A DNA stretch of 12,150 nt. Source: Methanothrix sp. GTDB taxonomy: Archaea > Halobacteriota > Methanosarcinia > Methanotrichales > Methanotrichaceae. Position 1 is the first letter of the stretch, and every line of letters starts with the position of its first letter. Positions 1 through 7,839 of this stretch are shown one piece after another. Position numbers and translations under genes: made by a program. The stretch lies in NCBI GenBank assembly GCA_040770465.1, contig JAXGJB010000053.1:1-12150 (forward strand), written 5' to 3'. Under the pieces are notes generated by a model. The model searched no databases. It was given only the letters and a program-made list of their open reading frames with translations, and was not told the origin of the DNA.

Positions 1-51
1 CCAAAATGAGCCTGGAAAGGCTGAAATAGGGACCCATTTCTAAGAGATTTC

Positions 52-1062
52 ATGGTCCGGAAGCCCCGGAAGGTCGAGACGATCAGGCCGGCAGAAGAGG
101 TTATTGCCCGCCTGGATGCGCTTTACATGGCCTGCCCGAAATGCCCGAGAGAGCCCGCTCTTGATAAGGCCGCGAGCTTCGCGAGGCTCGCCGCGATGGA
201 AGGGCGCCGGCAACGGTGTTCCGGCTGCGGGAGGGCGCCCCTGGACCTGGTGATGGTCGAGGCGATGGAGGTCCTCGTCGACCACAACCTGCGAAGCCGG
301 ACCGACCCCCTCCGGTCGATCGGCTGGCCCCTTGTGGAGGTGGGCTACCCTCTGGCCTACCCGCCGAGGCTGGGGCCAGATGAGCTCATCCTGGTCGGAG
401 AAAACCTGACAAAAGAGGCCGCCGCCGAGATCGTCGAACGAGTCCCGGAAGTCAAGGGCGTCATCCGGGGCGGCGGCGTCCCCGGCGTCGCAGATCTCCG
501 GGCCGCGCCCACCCGCTGGGATCTCCTGGCGGGCTCGGACCTCCGCTGCGACGTCATCAGCTCCCTAATCGGCGAGCTTGTGATCTACAAGCATCAGTCA
601 AAAATACACGTCGAGTTTCCCCGCCAGGCAGCTCCGAAGATGAAGATCCTGGAGGAGCTGTACTTCCGGGGTAAGTTGACCACAATCGCCGACGTCCTCT
701 GCGGCCCCGGGACCCTGGGCCTTGTGGCCGCCCTCGCCGGCGCGGAGCGGGTCGTCCTGAACGACGCCTGGCTTCCGGCGGTGGAGGACGCCATCCTGAA
801 CCTGGAGGCGAACCGGTCGATCCTGGGGATCGAGAAGATCGAGCGTCACAAGACCCCGGCGGGCGAGGTCGGCGCGGAGCCGAGCCTCGTGGCGGAGGCA
901 GAGGGCGAAACTTGCAAAATTGAGGTCTACTTCGGCGATGCCGAGAGGCTATTCTCGCGGGCGGAGCCTGTGGACCTCTGCCTCGTGGACCCCTTTCCTG
1001 GGATGAAGTACGACCGGATCGCCGAGGCGTGCAGGGTCTGCGGTGAGATCGTGATCGTGTAG
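52..1062 (+). CDS. Putative class I SAM-dependent methyltransferase with N-terminal Cys4 (Zn-ribbon-like) region
   Basis: 336-aa ORF with high-GC host-like codon usage. Two CxxC motifs (CPKC, CSGC). Gly-rich SAM-binding motif I variant IADVLCGPGTLG, followed by VVLND (motif II), YFGDA and CLVDPF. Substrate unknown. Confidence 0.75.
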   Translation: MVRKPRKVETIRPAEEVIARLDALYMACPKCPREPALDKAASFARLAAMEGRRQRCSGCGRAPLDLVMVEAMEVLVDHNLRSRTDPLRSIGWPLVEVGYPLAYPPRLGPDELILVGENLTKEAAAEIVERVPEVKGVIRGGGVPGVADLRAAPTRWDLLAGSDLRCDVISSLIGELVIYKHQSKIHVEFPRQAAPKMKILEELYFRGKLTTIADVLCGPGTLGLVAALAGAERVVLNDAWLPAVEDAILNLEANRSILGIEKIERHKTPAGEVGAEPSLVAEAEGETCKIEVYFGDAERLFSRAEPVDLCLVDPFPGMKYDRIAEACRVCGEIVIV

Positions 1063-1066
1063 GAGC

Positions 1067-1450
1067 TCATCGGCGGAGAGATTCCAGGTTATTCCGTACA
1101 ATTTTAGTGGTGGGGTGGTCCTCGCCCAAATTGTTTAGGCATATCTTCAGCCCACATTCCGCACCTTGAGTTTTGAAATTGGTATTTTTACTGCTATCGA
1201 TTTATGATATTAAATTCAATAAATTTAATTTATTAAGCTATTTTAATTTGTTTACGTTGACATTATGTTGATTATTCCTCGCAACGTGACATGATGAGAT
1301 ACCCGCTCAATAGGGAGTCGGCAGTAAGCAGACATAATATTAATGTAGATGAATAGCTAGATTTATAATTATATTAGTGGAATCGCTAGCTAGCAAAATA
1401 TCCGACTTAGGAAGTTAAGGTGCGGAATGTGGGTTCAGGGCCCGCTCGTA
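1067..1450 (-). pseudogene. Orphan TPR C-terminal cap fragment, split by the MITE (segments 1450-1439 and 1150-1067)
   Basis: After removing 1151-1438 (MITE plus one TSD copy), the minus strand reads YERALKICLNNLGEDHPTTKIVRNNLESLRR* (TGA at 1069-1067). It matches the C-terminus of the 3277-6072 protein (YERSLKIFQMRLGDENPYTIAVLNNLESIKR) at 17/31 residues with no gaps. Confidence 0.85.
1151..1433. mobile_element. 283-bp non-autonomous MITE, probably IS1634-related
   Basis: Perfect 17-bp terminal inverted repeats CCCACATTCCGCACCTT (1151-1167) / AAGGTGCGGAATGTGGG (1417-1433). 5-bp direct target duplication TTCAG (1146-1150, 1434-1438). AT-rich non-coding interior. TIR resembles the neighbouring IS ends (CCnnCtTTCCGCA). 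Removal restores an open reading frame. Confidence 0.92.
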
Positions 1451-1474
1451 TATCTGTCTCAAGGTAGCATCAAC

Positions 1475-3196
1475 CCATCTTTCCGCACTAACGGTCCTAT
1501 TTCTAGACATTTTCGCCAGAATTTATAGCGAAGATTTATTAAATATCCCGTTATATCCGATTTTTAGGAGTAGCGAGTATGGAGATAAGGACACTTCCTC
1601 TTGATCATTTAGGTTTAGTTGCAGGTGTATTTGATCAGCTCGATATCGCAGATCTTATCGATAACCGGATTCCAAAGCTCAGAAATCACAATCTTGAGCA
1701 TTCAAAAATCATAAAGGCGATGATCTTAAATGGTCTTGGCTATGTCGGCCAGAGATTATATCTATTCCCAGAATTTTATGAGAAACTCCCCATCGAGAGG
1801 TTACTTGGTAATGGTGTCACCGCAGCAGATCTGAATGACGATGCCCTCGGCAGAACTCTTGATGCGATTTTCGCCTACGGCCCTACTGAACTCTTCAACG
1901 ATATATCTTTGAAGGTAATGAGTCAGCTTGATCTTGGGGTTCAACGGCTTCATGCTGATACTACGAGCTTCAGTGTCCAGGGGAATTACGAGAGTCCCAG
2001 TGGTCGGAACGCTATCGAGATAACCCTTGGCCATTCCAAAGACGGACGGATGGATTTGAAGCAATTCGTGCTGGGATTGGTTACAAACCAGGACGGCATA
2101 CCTCTATTTGCCAAAGCTCATTCCGGAAACGCCTCGGATAAAAACACGATCATGGAATCATTTCTGAAAGTTAAGAAAAGCCTCAACCTTGATGATCCTG
2201 CATATTATATAGCAGATAGTGCGGTCTATAGTGCAAAAAATATTCAACAGCTTGGAACCGAGACGCTCTGGATAACTCGCGTACCAGCAACGTTAACCGA
2301 GTGTAAAACGCTAATTGATAGCGATTTAGGTATGATTCAGTGCTCCGACCCAAGATATAACTGCTATTCAACAACCTCAAACTATGGAGATATATTTCAA
2401 AGATGGGTCGTGTATCAATCTAAGCCGATGATGGAGAGAGCGAAGAAGACTTTCGAAAAGCGGCTCGAAAAAGAAGATCGCATAGCTGAAAGAGAACTGG
2501 CAAAACTCCGCCGTCGAGAGTTCGCCTGTGAAGCAGATGCAAGAAAAGAGGCTGAAATCTGGCTTGGAGAACATCCATTACACAAGTTTAAGGATTTATC
2601 CGTTAGAATCGTCGCCAAAAGATCGGATAAAAAGAGGGGACGACCTAAGAATGGTGAAAAGCTCATTGAAGTTCATTTAATTGAGGCTCAGATAGAATTT
2701 GACGAAGATAAGGTGATAAAAGAAAAATCAAGGCTTGGAAGGTTCATCTTAGCCACAAACGACCTCAATATAGATCCTGATACCATTCTGAGCTATTATA
2801 AGGGGCAACAAGCGGTCGAACAGGGGTTCAGATTCCTGAAAGATAAGAGCTTCCGCGTCTCGGAAGTGTATCTCAAGAAAGAAGAGCGCATTGAGGCTCT
2901 GGCCATGATCATGGTCCTGACTCTCATGATATATTCTATCGCGGAGTGGTTGATAAGAAAGCGAATGCAAGAAACGGGTGAGACAGTGCCAAACCAGCTA
3001 AAGAAGCCTACCCAAAGGCCAACATTCAAATGGATAGCGTTTCTGTTCATGGGTGTAGCTGAAGTAACCATATGGTTGAATGGGGAAATGCATCTATAGA
3101 TAGCGAATCTGAATGATGATCTTATTAAGATTATAAGACTGCTGGGGCGGGACTGCGAAAAATACTATGATTTGGAGCGTTGATGCGGAAAGCCGG
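1475..3196 (+). mobile_element. IS1634-family insertion sequence (1722 bp)
   Basis: Imperfect TIRs CCATCTTTCCGCA (1475-1487) / TGCGGAAAGCCGG (3184-3196), extendable to 17/22 matches. 6-bp target duplication ATCAAC (1469-1474, 3197-3202). Single transposase ORF. GC clearly lower than the flanking host genes. Confidence 0.92.
1579..3099 (+). CDS. IS1634-family DDE transposase; truncated by in-frame TAG at 3097-3099, with the frame continuing to 3183
   Basis: Family motifs LDHLGLVAG, LNDDALGRTLD, LHADTTS (D), GHSKDGRMDLKQ, IADSA (D), GRFILATN and VEQGFRFLK (E). AGGAG RBS at 1566-1570; TATA-like TTTATTAA at 1536-1543. Confidence 0.92.
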   Translation: MEIRTLPLDHLGLVAGVFDQLDIADLIDNRIPKLRNHNLEHSKIIKAMILNGLGYVGQRLYLFPEFYEKLPIERLLGNGVTAADLNDDALGRTLDAIFAYGPTELFNDISLKVMSQLDLGVQRLHADTTSFSVQGNYESPSGRNAIEITLGHSKDGRMDLKQFVLGLVTNQDGIPLFAKAHSGNASDKNTIMESFLKVKKSLNLDDPAYYIADSAVYSAKNIQQLGTETLWITRVPATLTECKTLIDSDLGMIQCSDPRYNCYSTTSNYGDIFQRWVVYQSKPMMERAKKTFEKRLEKEDRIAERELAKLRRREFACEADARKEAEIWLGEHPLHKFKDLSVRIVAKRSDKKRGRPKNGEKLIEVHLIEAQIEFDEDKVIKEKSRLGRFILATNDLNIDPDTILSYYKGQQAVEQGFRFLKDKSFRVSEVYLKKEERIEALAMIMVLTLMIYSIAEWLIRKRMQETGETVPNQLKKPTQRPTFKWIAFLFMGVAEVTIWLNGEMHL

Positions 3197-3276
3197 ATCA
3201 ACCATAGACAGAAGAGTTATAATGGTTTCATGAAATGGTTTTGCGCCAAATGGGATGACATTCTACGCGATAGATG

Positions 3277-6072
3277 CTACAAACGACGCTTAATCGACTC
3301 GAGATTATTTAGCACAGCTATCGTGTAAGGATTTTCATCACCTAAACGCATCTGGAATATCTTCAGGCTTCTCTCGTAATTCTCTTTGGCACCATCGAGG
3401 TCTCGATTCAGCGATAAGATGTTACCGAGGCCATTGAGTGTCGCGGCCATGTCAAGATTATCAGAGTCGGGGCCGAAGAATGCTTCCAGAATTTTCAAAG
3501 CCCTCTGGAAGCTATCTTTGGCACCCCCTAAATCACCTTTTTCGCCTAGGACATTCCCAAGTCCGATGAGCGCCGATGCCACATCAGGATGGTTGGAATT
3601 GGGGCCATAGATCGTCTCATAGATCAATAGAGCCTTATCTAAGGCAGATTTTGCACCATTGAGGTCGTGACTAGCTTGCAATACCATGCCTAAGTTCGTA
3701 AGAGTCAGGGCCATGGCAGGGTGGGGAAAGTCGGGGTAGACATCCTCATAAATCAACAAAGCCTTCTCGTAGCACTCCTTGGCTCCATCAACGTCACCCT
3801 TCTGGACGAGGACATTCCCGAGTCCAACAAACGTCGATGCTACATCAGGATGGCTGGAGTCGAAGCCGTAGATCTCCTTATAGATCGATAGAGCCTTTGC
3901 ATAGCACTCCTTGGCCCCATCGAAGTCGCCTTTTGCAAATAGGACTTCACCAAAACCATGAACTGCCGATGCCACATCGGGGCGGTTGGATTCAGGCCCA
4001 TAGACCTCCTCATAGATCGACAGAGCCCTCCCGTAACTTTTTTCGGCTTCTGCGAGGTTATTGCTAGCTAGCAGGACCGAGCCGAGGTTTATGAGTGCTA
4101 AGGCCACGTCAATGTGATTGGAGTCAGGACCATAGACATCATTGTAAATCGCTATAGCCTTATCAAAACAAGATTTGGCGCCATCTGGATCTCTATTATC
4201 GGATAGGACGGTACCGAGATTCATTAACGTCGATGCCACATCAGGATGGTTGGAGTCATGCCCATAAATTGCTTTTTTGATCTCCAGAGCTTTCTCGTAA
4301 CTAATCTTGGCTTCCTCGAAGTTGCCTTTCTGTCGTAAGACATTACCCAGGTTCCCGAGCACTTTTGCCATACCAGGATGATTGGAGTAGGATCCGTTGA
4401 ATGCTTCAAAAGTCGCCAGAGCCTTATCGAAAGCAACTTTGGAAGCATCGAATTCGGCACGCATTCCTAAATAAATGCCAACCTGGTTCAGAAGGCGACT
4501 GTATGATTCGTGAACATCTTCAAGCCTGACTACATGTTTCGACACGGCCAGAGCATGGGGCAACATGAAAGAGCACTCTGGCCAGGTCTGCGGGTCGTCA
4601 ATGCCTTGAGGAAAGGAGTTGGCCACAAGCAGCACTGCAGCTTCGCCCCATATTTTCCGCTCTTCGTTTGACAATCGATCACGCGTCACGGTCTGGACGA
4701 GCCGATGGACAGAGAGACTTTCGGGAGTCGCGTTTATCAGCGAGTATCGTTGAAGGGTGTCCACTGCCCGATTCACCGCCAGCTTATCAGCCAGCGATTC
4801 CGGAAGATGTCCATTTCCATCGCTGAAGAGCTTTCTGGGGATGTCGTCGGGAGCGAGGAACGCGCAGAGGTTCAAGAGATCCGCACCCACAGCTGCCTCC
4901 TCTTTGACTCGATTCATCGAAACCGTCCAGGCGGTCTCCACCTTCTCCCGATAGCTTTCTGGTTTCTTCTCGTCTTTCCAAAGCTCATTTCGACGGGTTT
5001 GGAAGAGCTCCAGATAATCGGCTAGCGTGATTTTAGTTGCCAGGATGTACGCAGCCGCCTGCTCCAGGGCCAAGGGGAGATCGCCGAGGGCGTCAGCAAG
5101 GGCGTCGGCCCCGCCATGCTGCCCGGTCCGGCTCTGGAGGAACTCGATCGACTCTTCCCGGCTGAAAACGTCGACAAGAAGCGGCTTTGCGGTGCCGCCC
5201 CAGTTCGGGTTTCTGGAGGTGATGATGACGTGACCTCTGCCGGTCCGGGGGAGATAATCTTTCAGATCTTCGGGCTCCTGGGCGTTATCGAAAACGAGGA
5301 GCCAGCCCCCGTTCTGCTCCAGCCAGCACCTAACGGCCTCGACGATGACCCTCTGGTCCTTTGCGTTCTTCTCGGGGAGGTCGAGCCTCGCGGCCAGGCC
5401 CGCGTAATCGGCGGCCAGGGTGGAGGGCTCCTCGGACCGGACCCACCAGACGACCTGGTAATCGTCGGCGTGGCGGTAGGAGTACTCCAGGGCGAGCTGG
5501 GTCTTGCCGACGCCGCCGAGGCCGGTGATGGCAGAGGTCTGGGTGAAGGCGGCGCGCTCTCCGGAGGCGAGGGCTTCGGAGAGGCGGTCGAGCAGGTCCA
5601 CACGGCCGGTGAAGTTGGGGTTGTGGGGGTGCGGTATGTTGTTGATCTTGCCGAGAGTTTTTTCTGCTACAGCTGGTTCTTTTGGGCTGGGATACGTGAT
5701 GTGCACGCCGCCCTCGATACGATCGGACTTTATCGTCGGGCATTGATCGCCAAAAGATATTGCGCTGTCTTTCACATTCTCGACGATGTTACCGCCATCA
5801 TCTGACGGGACTTTTTTGCCCCGTCTCCGGAAAAATGCGTAAAGCACTGTTAGACCAACTAAAATGCCCACTAATTTGTCGACATTATCAAGCAGATCAC
5901 TATCCTCTTTGTCGGGAATATCTGCCTTCGCAATTGGAGCCACTGTTTGATTCGTGCCGTTCTCGCCTCCCTGCGCCTGGGCCAGCGCGGTCGCTGCCAG
6001 AGACAGCATCATCAGCGCCAGGACGATGAGCGGCTTCGGTCTCGTCAGGACTCCTCCAACACTGCCGTTCAA
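3277..6072 (-). CDS. NLR-like STAND NTPase: signal peptide + single TM + NB-ARC + TPR array
   Basis: PNFTGR pre-P-loop motif, Walker A GLGGVGKT (~5500-5523), Walker B WLLVFDNA, sensor-1 VIITSR, GDLPLAL (GxP) and SVHRLVQ (MHD-like). About 9 TPRs follow. The N-terminus has a hydrophobic signal (LIVLALMMLSLAATALA) and a TM (LVGILVGLTVLYAFF) followed by RRRGKK. The TTG start is uncertain; a downstream ATG is possible. Confidence 0.9.
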   Translation of the reverse strand: MNGSVGGVLTRPKPLIVLALMMLSLAATALAQAQGGENGTNQTVAPIAKADIPDKEDSDLLDNVDKLVGILVGLTVLYAFFRRRGKKVPSDDGGNIVENVKDSAISFGDQCPTIKSDRIEGGVHITYPSPKEPAVAEKTLGKINNIPHPHNPNFTGRVDLLDRLSEALASGERAAFTQTSAITGLGGVGKTQLALEYSYRHADDYQVVWWVRSEEPSTLAADYAGLAARLDLPEKNAKDQRVIVEAVRCWLEQNGGWLLVFDNAQEPEDLKDYLPRTGRGHVIITSRNPNWGGTAKPLLVDVFSREESIEFLQSRTGQHGGADALADALGDLPLALEQAAAYILATKITLADYLELFQTRRNELWKDEKKPESYREKVETAWTVSMNRVKEEAAVGADLLNLCAFLAPDDIPRKLFSDGNGHLPESLADKLAVNRAVDTLQRYSLINATPESLSVHRLVQTVTRDRLSNEERKIWGEAAVLLVANSFPQGIDDPQTWPECSFMLPHALAVSKHVVRLEDVHESYSRLLNQVGIYLGMRAEFDASKVAFDKALATFEAFNGSYSNHPGMAKVLGNLGNVLRQKGNFEEAKISYEKALEIKKAIYGHDSNHPDVASTLMNLGTVLSDNRDPDGAKSCFDKAIAIYNDVYGPDSNHIDVALALINLGSVLLASNNLAEAEKSYGRALSIYEEVYGPESNRPDVASAVHGFGEVLFAKGDFDGAKECYAKALSIYKEIYGFDSSHPDVASTFVGLGNVLVQKGDVDGAKECYEKALLIYEDVYPDFPHPAMALTLTNLGMVLQASHDLNGAKSALDKALLIYETIYGPNSNHPDVASALIGLGNVLGEKGDLGGAKDSFQRALKILEAFFGPDSDNLDMAATLNGLGNILSLNRDLDGAKENYERSLKIFQMRLGDENPYTIAVLNNLESIKRRL
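3280..4512 (-). repeat. Intragenic TPR tandem array, ~9 units of mostly 44 aa (132 bp)
   Basis: Consensus HPDVAxxLxNLGxVLxxxGDxxGAKxxYxKALxIYxxxYGPDSN. An identical 24-mer CGATGCCACATCAGGATGGTTGGA occurs at 3574-3597 and 4231-4254, 657 bp (5 units) apart. Confidence 0.9.
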
Positions 6073-6149: not shown

Positions 6150-6248
6150 CGGATCGTCACGAACGACACCTGACTCCCGGCGGAGGAGAACGCCATCCTC
6201 AACCTGGAGGCGAACCGGTCAGTTCTGGGGATCGAGAAGATCGAGCGG
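6150..6248 (+). pseudogene. Decayed internal fragment of the 52-1062 methyltransferase gene (direct repeat of 748-846)
   Basis: 86/99 nt identical by hand alignment, no gaps. Translates RIVTNDT*LPAEENAILNLEANRSVLGIEKIER versus RVVLNDAWLPAVEDAILNLEANRSILGIEKIER, with TGG changed to TGA at 6171-6173. Confidence 0.9.
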
Positions 6249-6300: not shown

Positions 6301-7839
6301 ATGAGCTTTGGCATAAGCATAACGAGAATCGGTGTCTTAAAGTGCGCTGCGGCGCTGGTGATCGTCTCAATTCTTTTAATTCCTGTCTCCGTTGCAGACG
6401 AGGCAGGCCAGACGGATTCCGAATCGGGAAAAGACGATCACGTCAAGGCAACGGTCAAAGGCATCGGCTGGAAGAATGCCGTGATGATTAATATGCCCGA
6501 GAGCGAAAGCCCCAACTCCTCCAGCGCGGGAGGGGCGGGTGAGAGCCTCTCGACCTCAGCCGGCAGCCGCAACGATTCGTCGTCGGGAACTTCCAGCGAG
6601 GGAGAAGTGTTGGTGCCCCATTGGATGGTCGGGACTAGAAACGGGACCGTAGGCTTATCGGTCCTGGAAACGGAAGACGGCGGCTATATCGTCCTTGGGG
6701 ACGTCTTCGAGTACGAGGCCTTCGGACCGGTGATGGACTCCAGGGATATCCTGCTTTTGAAGACCGATTCTAACGGGAGCGAGGAGTGGAACAGGACCAT
6801 TGGAGGAGATGACTGGGATTATGGATCCTCGATTCAAAAGACAAGAGACGGGGGCTACATAATCGCTGGGCTCACAAAATCATACGGGATCTCCGGGCCT
6901 GACGAGCGATTACCGGACATCTGGCTGATAAGAACCGATTCAAACGGAACCGAGCTTTGGAGCAGGACCTTAGGCGTCAGATCCTTCGGTGGCCCCGAAT
7001 TCGACGCTGGACTCTTCGCCCGAGAAACGTTGGATGGCGGCTATGCCGTCGCCAGCAACAAATATAGACCTGACGATGACGGGCTGGACGCCTGGATTAT
7101 AAAAACCGACCCTTACGGAGTCGAAGAATGGGATAGAACGATCGGAGACAGAGTCCGGGGAATGTTGGTCTCGGCCCTGGTGACCGACGAGGGCGAATAC
7201 CTCCTTCTCATCAACGAAAGACCCCCCGACGACGACTCCTTAAGACGCGTCATGCTGATCAAGACCGATCAGGAAGGAAACGATATCTGGACCACGGAAT
7301 TTGAGGGAACAGGCGGCCAGTCCGGCCAAATCCTCAGGGCGAGCGAAGATGGAGGATACACCGCTGGAGGCTACGTCGGAGGTTTTAGATCACCCTGGTT
7401 GGCAAAGGCGGACTCCGAAGGAAATACGGTCTGGAAATGGGATCTGAACAGCCTCTTCAACCTGGACCCCGACCTGACCGTCTTCATATCGGAAGACGGA
7501 CTCAGCAAAGGCATCGCCACTCCGAAGTGGAATATCTCCTATGAGCTGTACGATTTCCAGGCGACGGTGGACGGAGGCTACATAATCCTCAGCAGAAACC
7601 CGGCCGGCGAGGTCTGCTTGACGAAATTGAATCCCGGCGGGGTCATGGTGTGGAAAAACACCTACAGCAAGTCCGATATAGGCTTGGGAAACTCGGTTAT
7701 GGAAACCAGTGACGGAGGCTACATCATCACCGGATCCCGGGACAACGACCTCTGCCTCATGAAGACCGATTCGGAAGGCGTCCAGGAGTGGAACAGGATA
7801 TTCCTCAGCGTTCCAGGCGGTCTTGAAATCGAGACCTAA
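6301..7839 (+). CDS. Secreted/cell-surface beta-propeller repeat protein
   Basis: N-terminal signal peptide (AAALVIVSILLIPVSVA), Ser/Gly-rich linker, then 7 repeats of T.DGGY(I/A)..G...L.KTD..G...W. Several N-x-S/T sequons. No C-terminal TM anchor. Confidence 0.8.
   Translation: MSFGISITRIGVLKCAAALVIVSILLIPVSVADEAGQTDSESGKDDHVKATVKGIGWKNAVMINMPESESPNSSSAGGAGESLSTSAGSRNDSSSGTSSEGEVLVPHWMVGTRNGTVGLSVLETEDGGYIVLGDVFEYEAFGPVMDSRDILLLKTDSNGSEEWNRTIGGDDWDYGSSIQKTRDGGYIIAGLTKSYGISGPDERLPDIWLIRTDSNGTELWSRTLGVRSFGGPEFDAGLFARETLDGGYAVASNKYRPDDDGLDAWIIKTDPYGVEEWDRTIGDRVRGMLVSALVTDEGEYLLLINERPPDDDSLRRVMLIKTDQEGNDIWTTEFEGTGGQSGQILRASEDGGYTAGGYVGGFRSPWLAKADSEGNTVWKWDLNSLFNLDPDLTVFISEDGLSKGIATPKWNISYELYDFQATVDGGYIILSRNPAGEVCLTKLNPGGVMVWKNTYSKSDIGLGNSVMETSDGGYIITGSRDNDLCLMKTDSEGVQEWNRIFLSVPGGLEIET

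Follow-up and report, generated by a model that had tools for sequence, protein, structure and literature searches.

A diverged 3' part and an orphaned old tail suggest in-place replacement within an archaeal NLR gene of Methanothrix

NLR-type receptors are thought to gain new specificities through the exchange of their sensor modules, a process that in prokaryotes has mostly been inferred from domain architectures. The locus described here raises the question of whether a short TPR-coding frame, lying downstream of an archaeal NLR gene in the same orientation and split by a MITE, records one such exchange, and if so how much of the gene was exchanged. The locus occupies a single contig (C53) of 12,150 nt, the whole of which was analysed and is called the window below; it belongs to a 2.54-Mb genome of 57% GC, assembled in 66 contigs with an estimated contamination of 3.4%. 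Habitats of the sequencing runs that contain this DNA, and the source names of distant homologs, hint at a methanogen-type archaeon that probably lives in anaerobic digesters. In the order of the forward strand its features are as follows.

52-1062, plus strand: methyltransferase-like ORF of 336 residues, which anchors the locus; TAG stop at 1060-1062
1067-1460, minus strand: orphan NLR tail, interrupted by the MITE
1067-1150, minus strand: distal part of the orphan tail, with a TGA stop at 1067-1069 and 27 codons ending ...GEDHPTTKIVRNNLESLRR
1151-1433, no strand assigned: MITE of 283 nt inside the orphan tail; TTCAG duplicated at 1146-1150 and 1434-1438
1439-1460, minus strand: proximal part of the orphan tail; homology to ancestral tails starts between 1460 and 1450, that is, between the MITE and the IS
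1461-1474, minus strand: unmatched end of the spacer, with no homology to ortholog tails (the rest of the spacer is at 3203-3276)
1475-3196, plus strand: insertion sequence (IS) of the IS1634 family, transposase at 1579-3099; ATCAAC duplicated at 1469-1474 and 3197-3202
3203-3276, minus strand: spacer 3' of the resident NLR stop, 40% GC, presumed 3' flank of an incoming segment
3277-6072, minus strand: resident NLR gene, encoding a 931-residue NB-ARC-DUF7779-TPR_12 protein; stop at 3277-3279
3277-5055, minus strand: part of the resident NLR read as replaced, residues ~340-931 (ARC/winged-helix, here DUF7779, 44-residue TPR units, own cap and stop)
5056-6072, minus strand: part of the resident NLR read as native, residues 1-339 (signal-peptide-like start, variable stub, membrane helix, P-loop half of the NB-ARC domain)
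6150-6247, plus strand: fragment of a methyltransferase-like gene, 98 nt
6301-7839, plus strand: ORF512, with CDC48 and CbiM genes beyond

The orphan tail and its insertions

The anchoring ORF has orthologs in 15/15 same-genus and 36/36 same-family genomes in a protein search that covered 60 relatives overall, and the DNA downstream of it was compared in 14 of the 15 same-genus genomes (in the other, G005, the contig end cuts the gene). Its assignment as a methyltransferase is weak: the protein has a PrmA-like SAM-binding stretch (E 0.0017) and a match to PADLOC mad2 (E 6.6e-8), with no match in the Pfam scan.

Excision of the MITE and the IS in silico yields a 59-codon stop-to-stop frame on the minus strand, with an in-frame ATG 40 codons from its stop. 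A sequence-only reading of the window had described a 31-codon frame that matches the end of the resident NLR at 17 of 31 residues without a gap, and whose stop lies 4 bp from that of the methyltransferase-like gene. Both observations were reproduced, the last 31 codons being 60% identical in nucleotides to the resident NLR end, and the TGA at 1067-1069 standing 4 bp from the TAG at 1060-1062. The same reading had placed the orphan about 105 bp beyond the NLR stop; it does lie downstream, but the measured distance from that stop to the first base homologous to ancestral tails is 88-98 nt. Its claim that the orphan is no recent duplication of the NLR end held, in that a copy of the resident end could be rejected, the 60% identity to that end comparing with 76-80% to the tails of four orthologs. 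In blastn the orphan is 79.6% identical to the tail of G015 (E 6e-20), 78.5% to that of G012 and 77.8% to that of G010 over 93 nt, and 75.7% identical to that of G011 over 103 nt, with the alignments starting in the reconstructed region at position 92 (G011) and position 102 (G015).

Across the tails of all eight orthologs the last 93 nt of the orphan are 62-80% identical, the range from ortholog to ortholog being 55-86%, and 19-24 of its 31 residues are identical, by which homology it is predicted to be a terminal unit of the TPR_12/TPR_10 type. The resident NLR's own tail reaches 55-66% nucleotide identity with any ortholog tail. Paralogs on contigs C41, C1, C43 and C55 have related but different caps. 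Given the 4-bp spacing of the stops together with the identity to ortholog tails, we consider the orphan shown to be the positional ortholog of the ancestral NLR 3' end, comprising the last TPR half-unit and cap (~31-35 codons).

The limits of the two insertions could be fixed from outside the window. The MITE has imperfect inverted ends of 42 nt, target duplications of 5-6 bp and three copies in the genome, and is classed as a MITE on these features; the further copies, at C8:68120-68401 (91.5%) and C24:36297-36579 (88.0%), have the same ends and 6-bp duplications of their own. The IS encodes a DUF4277 + DDE_Tnp_1 transposase between inverted ends starting at 1475 and 3196, with a 6-bp duplication, and belongs by these characters to the IS1634 family (IS4-like); annotated transposases of that family, its best annotated matches, are 49% identical over 99% of the length. 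Contigs of other sequencing runs that carry the MITE in other contexts (three runs, from different studies) break exactly at 1151 and 1433/1435, and those that carry the IS elsewhere break at 1475 and 3196/3198, so that the boundaries of the elements are established independently. Each element is shown to have entered by simple insertion, with duplication of its target. The stretches 816-1180 and 3184-3346 are bridged by exact or near-exact contigs, the former from run X1 (possibly the sample from which the window itself derives) and the latter from run X5 of a different study; none of the contigs shown bridges 1433-1475. Among the contigs of four runs there is none in which the flanks of the MITE or of the IS are joined directly, which, these being contigs only, is no proof of absence. 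The ends of the MITE (1151-1167) and of the IS (1475-1494) have the core TTCCGCAC in common, from which it may be that a related transposase could move the MITE.

The slot across the genus

In 8 of the 14 same-genus loci (G011, G015, G014, G002, G012, G008, G006 and G010) an NB-ARC-TPR gene stands tail-to-tail with the methyltransferase-like gene, its stop exactly 4 bp from the other in every case, and all eight proteins end in ...LGEDHPxTKxVRxNLESLRR or close variants. The proposal of the sequence-only reading that the ancestral NLR ended here, tail-to-tail with the methyltransferase-like gene, is thereby upheld. So is its prediction of relatives that combine a related NB-ARC core with a different TPR array and the same tail beside that gene, the arrays of the NLR-bearing relatives being only 39-48% identical to that of the window. 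On one side of the slot stands the methyltransferase-like gene, on the other a conserved DUF3307 / LPG-synthase-like / ThiI block.

The NLR gene is absent from the other six loci, four of which retain a relic tail. That of G009 measures 119 nt at 79% identity and has lost its stop codon, while that of G013 measures 109 nt at 82% identity and is frameshifted. In G004 an internal deletion has left 89 nt of tail at 89% identity together with the first 108 nt of the gene, and conserved positions of the tail are substituted. The shortest relic, in G007, is 24 nt (8 codons); beyond it, on the opposite strand, comes a CHAT-NB-ARC-TPR gene that encodes at least 857 residues (L033 bases 2-2572, minus strand of the locus). 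No relic tail was found at the slot in G001 and G003. Other occupants of the slot are ORF512, in three genomes, and, in G001 and G013, a pentapeptide-repeat membrane protein. A tree of the methyltransferase-like gene, a single gene of ~1 kb, has the NLR losses scattered and places the window genome with G007 and G009 (support 62 and 86).

Where the NLR is retained, its parts do not vary together. Between G015 and G012 the P-loop half diverges (52-65% nucleotide identity) and the winged-helix and TPR parts are alike (72-92%); G011 and G006 are alike in the NB-ARC domain (83-95%) and not in the array (46-65%). The NLR of G008 (L040) has an NB-ARC domain only ~30% identical in amino acids to all others, an array 60% identical to those of G015 and G012, and the same position and tail; it is best read from these alignments as an NLR whose N-terminal half has been exchanged. 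Within the last four TPR units of the G011 NLR (L032), three consecutive 44-residue units are nearly identical to one another, which points to recent tandem expansion or homogenisation in that array. The locus is a mosaic turnover hotspot, in which the NB-ARC half, the winged-helix and TPR part and the N-terminal stub differ in their histories.

A resident NLR of two histories

The resident protein matches PF00931 at 26.7 bits (cut-off 23.5), DUF7779 at 47.3 bits and TPR_12 at 260.8 bits in 7 stretches, and with its NB-ARC domain, winged-helix/arm and repeat sensor it falls in the NB-ARC clade of STAND NTPases. Codon-aligned to its best ortholog, it falls into three parts, with 82-93% nucleotide identity over residues 1-320 (third positions 75-88%), ~70% over residues 321-480 (third positions ~50%), and 45-66% over residues 481-931. 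Selective constraint that differs along the protein contributes to these steps. However, four orthologs (G011, G015, G002 and G006) remain ~80-92% identical to one another up to residue 480, so that the drop near residue 340 is specific to this genome and does not reflect a change of constraint only. Whichever of three comparators is used, a maximum chi-square scan puts the breakpoint at residue 339-340 (chi-square 98-117, versus at most 22 in 200 permutations), and by reading of the alignment it appears to fall at the conserved GxPLAL motif of the NB-ARC domain.

Maximum-likelihood trees separate the two sides of this point. Over residues 161-320 the resident NLR sits among the orthologs on a branch of 0.058; over residues 321-520 its branch is 0.55 and lies outside the tight ortholog clade (support 86), the deeper nodes being poorly supported, and from residue 321 on paralogs are about as close to it as orthologs are. 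Its TPR units are 44 residues long, those of five of six orthologs (G015, G002, G012, G008 and G006) are 42, and the 44-residue type recurs in the G011 ortholog, which has kept the ancestral tail, and in the C43 paralog. The orthologs do not have the TPR array of the resident NLR, and the resident cap differs from the orthologs' cap. At the other end of the gene, the order NLR start, methyltransferase-like fragment, ORF512 is common to the window, G008 and G014, which places the NLR 5' end in its ancestral position. On these alignments the resident NLR is shown to be a chimera, whose first 339 codons are native and whose remainder is diverged.

Several further observations concern the surroundings of the native part and the relatives of the gene elsewhere. 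Ahead of the NB-ARC domain, residues 1-120 (5710-6072, minus strand) begin with a signal-peptide-like stretch and run through a short variable stub into a hydrophobic helix with basic residues behind it, an arrangement that suggests membrane anchoring of this STAND protein; in nucleotides its stub (residues 41-120) matches G015 only at 87-93% identity, and the others at 28-65%. The fragment at 6150-6247, between the NLR start and ORF512, matches the SAM-binding region of the methyltransferase-like gene (nt 697-794) at 87.8% identity and carries an in-frame TGA, and similar fragments precede ORF512 in G008 and G014 too. ORF512, which adjoins the NLR in those two genomes at ~84% identity, has no Pfam family and matches an SBBP beta-propeller lipoprotein model weakly (33 bits, cut-off 400). 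An isolated 42-residue P-loop fragment at C32:15661-15786, ending in a stop within AT-rich surroundings, is 78.6% identical to NLR residues 167-208 and is probably another NLR relic. Two paralogous NLR genes, C41:14544-17504 (minus strand) and C43:19839-22190 (plus strand), have nearly identical upstream open-frame sequence and a conserved stretch directly after their stop codons, with arrays that differ, one having 42-residue units at GC3 0.33 and the other 44-residue units at GC3 0.65.

Where the diverged part came from was pursued in several collections. Neither the DNA of the TPR segment nor the spacer led to a donor in 16 genus and 105 order genomes, the best DNA matches to the segment being the G011 ortholog (67-69%) and the C43 paralog (65-71%), and the spacer having no match in those genomes. 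A search of 5.8 billion proteins returned at best 52% identity, JGI metagenome contigs gave one unrelated 27% match and no donor, and the tails and 3' flanks of the genome's own paralogs and of one G002 paralog do not match the segment or the spacer. Base composition was considered as proof of foreign origin and set aside, because the GC3 of the resident TPR part (0.52, the 12th percentile of long ORFs) is equalled or undercut by paralog TPR arrays (0.33 and 0.49).

How the exchange may have happened, and what it means

We favour, at a probability of roughly 0.68, a reading in which the 3' two-thirds of the NLR were replaced in place by a diverged family member, with the old tail left as a scar. 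An ancestral NB-ARC-TPR gene would have stood tail-to-tail with the methyltransferase-like gene, the orphan being its 3' end. Some 1.9 kb from a diverged member of the same gene family would then have replaced the NLR from GxPLAL on, bringing the ARC/winged-helix, the array of 44-residue TPR units, its own capping unit and stop, and ~90 nt of 3' flank. A single recombination event could account for this, its upstream end being a homologous crossover and its downstream end an illegitimate join within the old gene's last TPR unit; as the incoming piece would have ended past its own stop, the old 31-35 codons would have been left behind out of frame, later to receive the MITE, with the IS1634-family element entering the spacer. 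The donor not having been found, we infer both the direction of the exchange and its single step. The sequence-only reading had a foreign TPR array displacing the sensor; replacement of the 3' part, with the old tail left behind, stands, though the segment is larger than proposed, running from residue ~340 and including the ARC/winged-helix, and its source need not be foreign.

Of the other courses of events, the one that fares best has a tandem stage, in which a second complete NLR gene inserted upstream and a later deletion took out the ancestral gene from its 5' end as far as its last TPR unit, so that the newcomer with its 3' flank came to adjoin the old tail. That the slot can house other STAND genes is demonstrated by the CHAT-NB-ARC-TPR gene beside the 8-codon relic of G007, and deletions sparing ~90-120 nt of tail have occurred in G009, G004 and G013. 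Yet a second NLR or TPR gene is found in the slot in none of the eight NLR-bearing relatives (the sequence-only reading had named a complete second TPR gene as the sign of a simple tandem deletion). Moreover, over its 5' 1 kb the resident gene matches the single orthologous gene of the relatives at 82-93% nucleotide identity, and its upstream synteny is that of G008 and G014, so that a tandem newcomer would need prior chimerism or later conversion. We regard this course as unlikely.

Less likely still is loss followed by re-gain, whereby an ancestor of the window genome, G007 and G009 kept only a relic and the window lineage re-acquired an NLR beside it. NLR loss is common in the genus, and the three relic-bearing genomes do cluster in the methyltransferase-like gene tree, but that tree represents one gene of ~1 kb, and the relics differ in length and junction partner (~93-103 nt in the window, 119 nt in G009, 24 nt in G007), with junction sequences that are not identical among the three. 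Homologous re-gain from a relative would also import the ancestral tail and erase the relic, and the 5' third of the resident NLR is native.

Might the orphan instead encode a small protein, or be a silent module stored for recombination in the manner of polymorphic toxin, pilin or hsdS loci? The open 59-codon frame before insertion, with its in-frame ATG, could be taken in that sense, as could the better conservation of the tail among orthologs (55-86% in nucleotides) than of the arrays (46-65% in several pairs). However, only 31-35 codons are homologous, with no homology upstream of the junction; the MITE splits the relic, the relics of relatives are damaged (the frameshift of G013, the lost stop of G009, the substituted conserved positions of G004), and the 4 bp to the next gene leave no room for a partner, all of which makes a stored cassette very improbable. 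Last and least probable is an artefact, either a chance TPR-like frame (TPR_12-type units are strongly consensus-like, and the orphan is 40-48% identical to the paralog tails on C41, C1 and C43) or a chimeric contig joined through the IS in a fragmented, slightly contaminated assembly, which is contradicted by the orthology of the orphan in both nucleotides and position (E 6e-20, identical 4-bp spacing), by a junction of old tail and spacer that lies outside the IS, by the matching 6-bp duplications that flank the IS, and by the contigs from two studies that bridge neighbouring junctions.

Returning to in-place replacement, the relic has no function of its own and is a scar, not a stored cassette. 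It persists as a short and young sequence, and its location in the 3' region of the convergent methyltransferase-like gene possibly contributes; from T-runs in the locus sequences, the tail was also considered as a candidate terminator of that gene. A broader interpretation, which we offer tentatively and do not hold to be the likelier case, is that the slot would be a dedicated diversification site for a membrane-anchored archaeal NLR, whose modules (ectodomain stub, P-loop half of the NB-ARC domain, ARC/winged-helix plus TPR array) would be swapped repeatedly among alleles and paralogs at a few conserved anchors (signal-peptide region, GxPLAL motif, last TPR unit). With the conserved tail acting as 3' homology arm, its survival beyond the gene in five lineages would be accounted for, and the window would represent one exchange that overshot the arm.

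The polymorphic toxin loci invoked by the sequence-only reading offer a superficial parallel. In such loci (Rhs, CdiA) the old C-terminal part is displaced by an incoming one that brings its own stop, and persists downstream without a change of orientation; to this extent the window is alike. Toxin orphans, however, still have their toxin domain entire, along with an immunity gene and a portion of the conserved core through which they can be re-activated, whereas the orphan of the window has no complete C-terminal domain (31-35 codons), no immunity partner (4 bp to the next stop) and no retained core, the sequence upstream of its junction matching neither the NLR nor its orthologs in the tail comparison and the 16 genus genomes. 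The nearer likeness is to the shuffling of NLR and STAND genes (fungal NWD/HET-type, plant, and prokaryotic NB-ARC-TPR), where tripartite STAND proteins exchange sensor repeats and modules between alleles and paralogs; in fungi and plants, module and repeat shuffling is well described (PMC13449251). The present case differs in being archaeal, in that both breakpoints can be mapped, and in that the displaced old 3' end is still present. A narrow search of the full-text literature returned no description of an orphan-tail footprint for a prokaryotic NLR gene.

As a variable slot between conserved core genes, the locus also recalls hotspots of variable cargo such as defence islands, from which it differs in that no integrase or att-like sites were seen at the slot and PADLOC gave generic TPR matches only for the NLR; a defence role would follow from the family to which the NLR belongs. 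The protein matches the NCBIfam model NF040586 (FxSxx-COOH system tetratricopeptide repeat protein) over residues 149-927 at 486.7 bits (cut-off 300). That system further comprises short FxSxx-COOH peptides and a radical SAM maturase, neither of which had a match among the window ORFs scanned, and the resident NLR departs from it, as read from the translation, in its signal-peptide-like start and membrane helix before the NB-ARC domain.

The locus clearly exemplifies, in a new setting, an evolutionary process that is already known. One exchange has been caught with both of its ends mapped: upstream a crossover at GxPLAL, by which the arm and winged-helix would travel with the TPR sensor, and downstream a join past the donor stop, owing to which the displaced old tail is still in place. 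The mosaic orthologs and four further relic tails provide a concrete natural system for the diversification and loss of archaeal STAND receptors, and the case shows that even very short relics of a gene, where they adjoin conserved genes, can serve to establish the age and orientation of such events.
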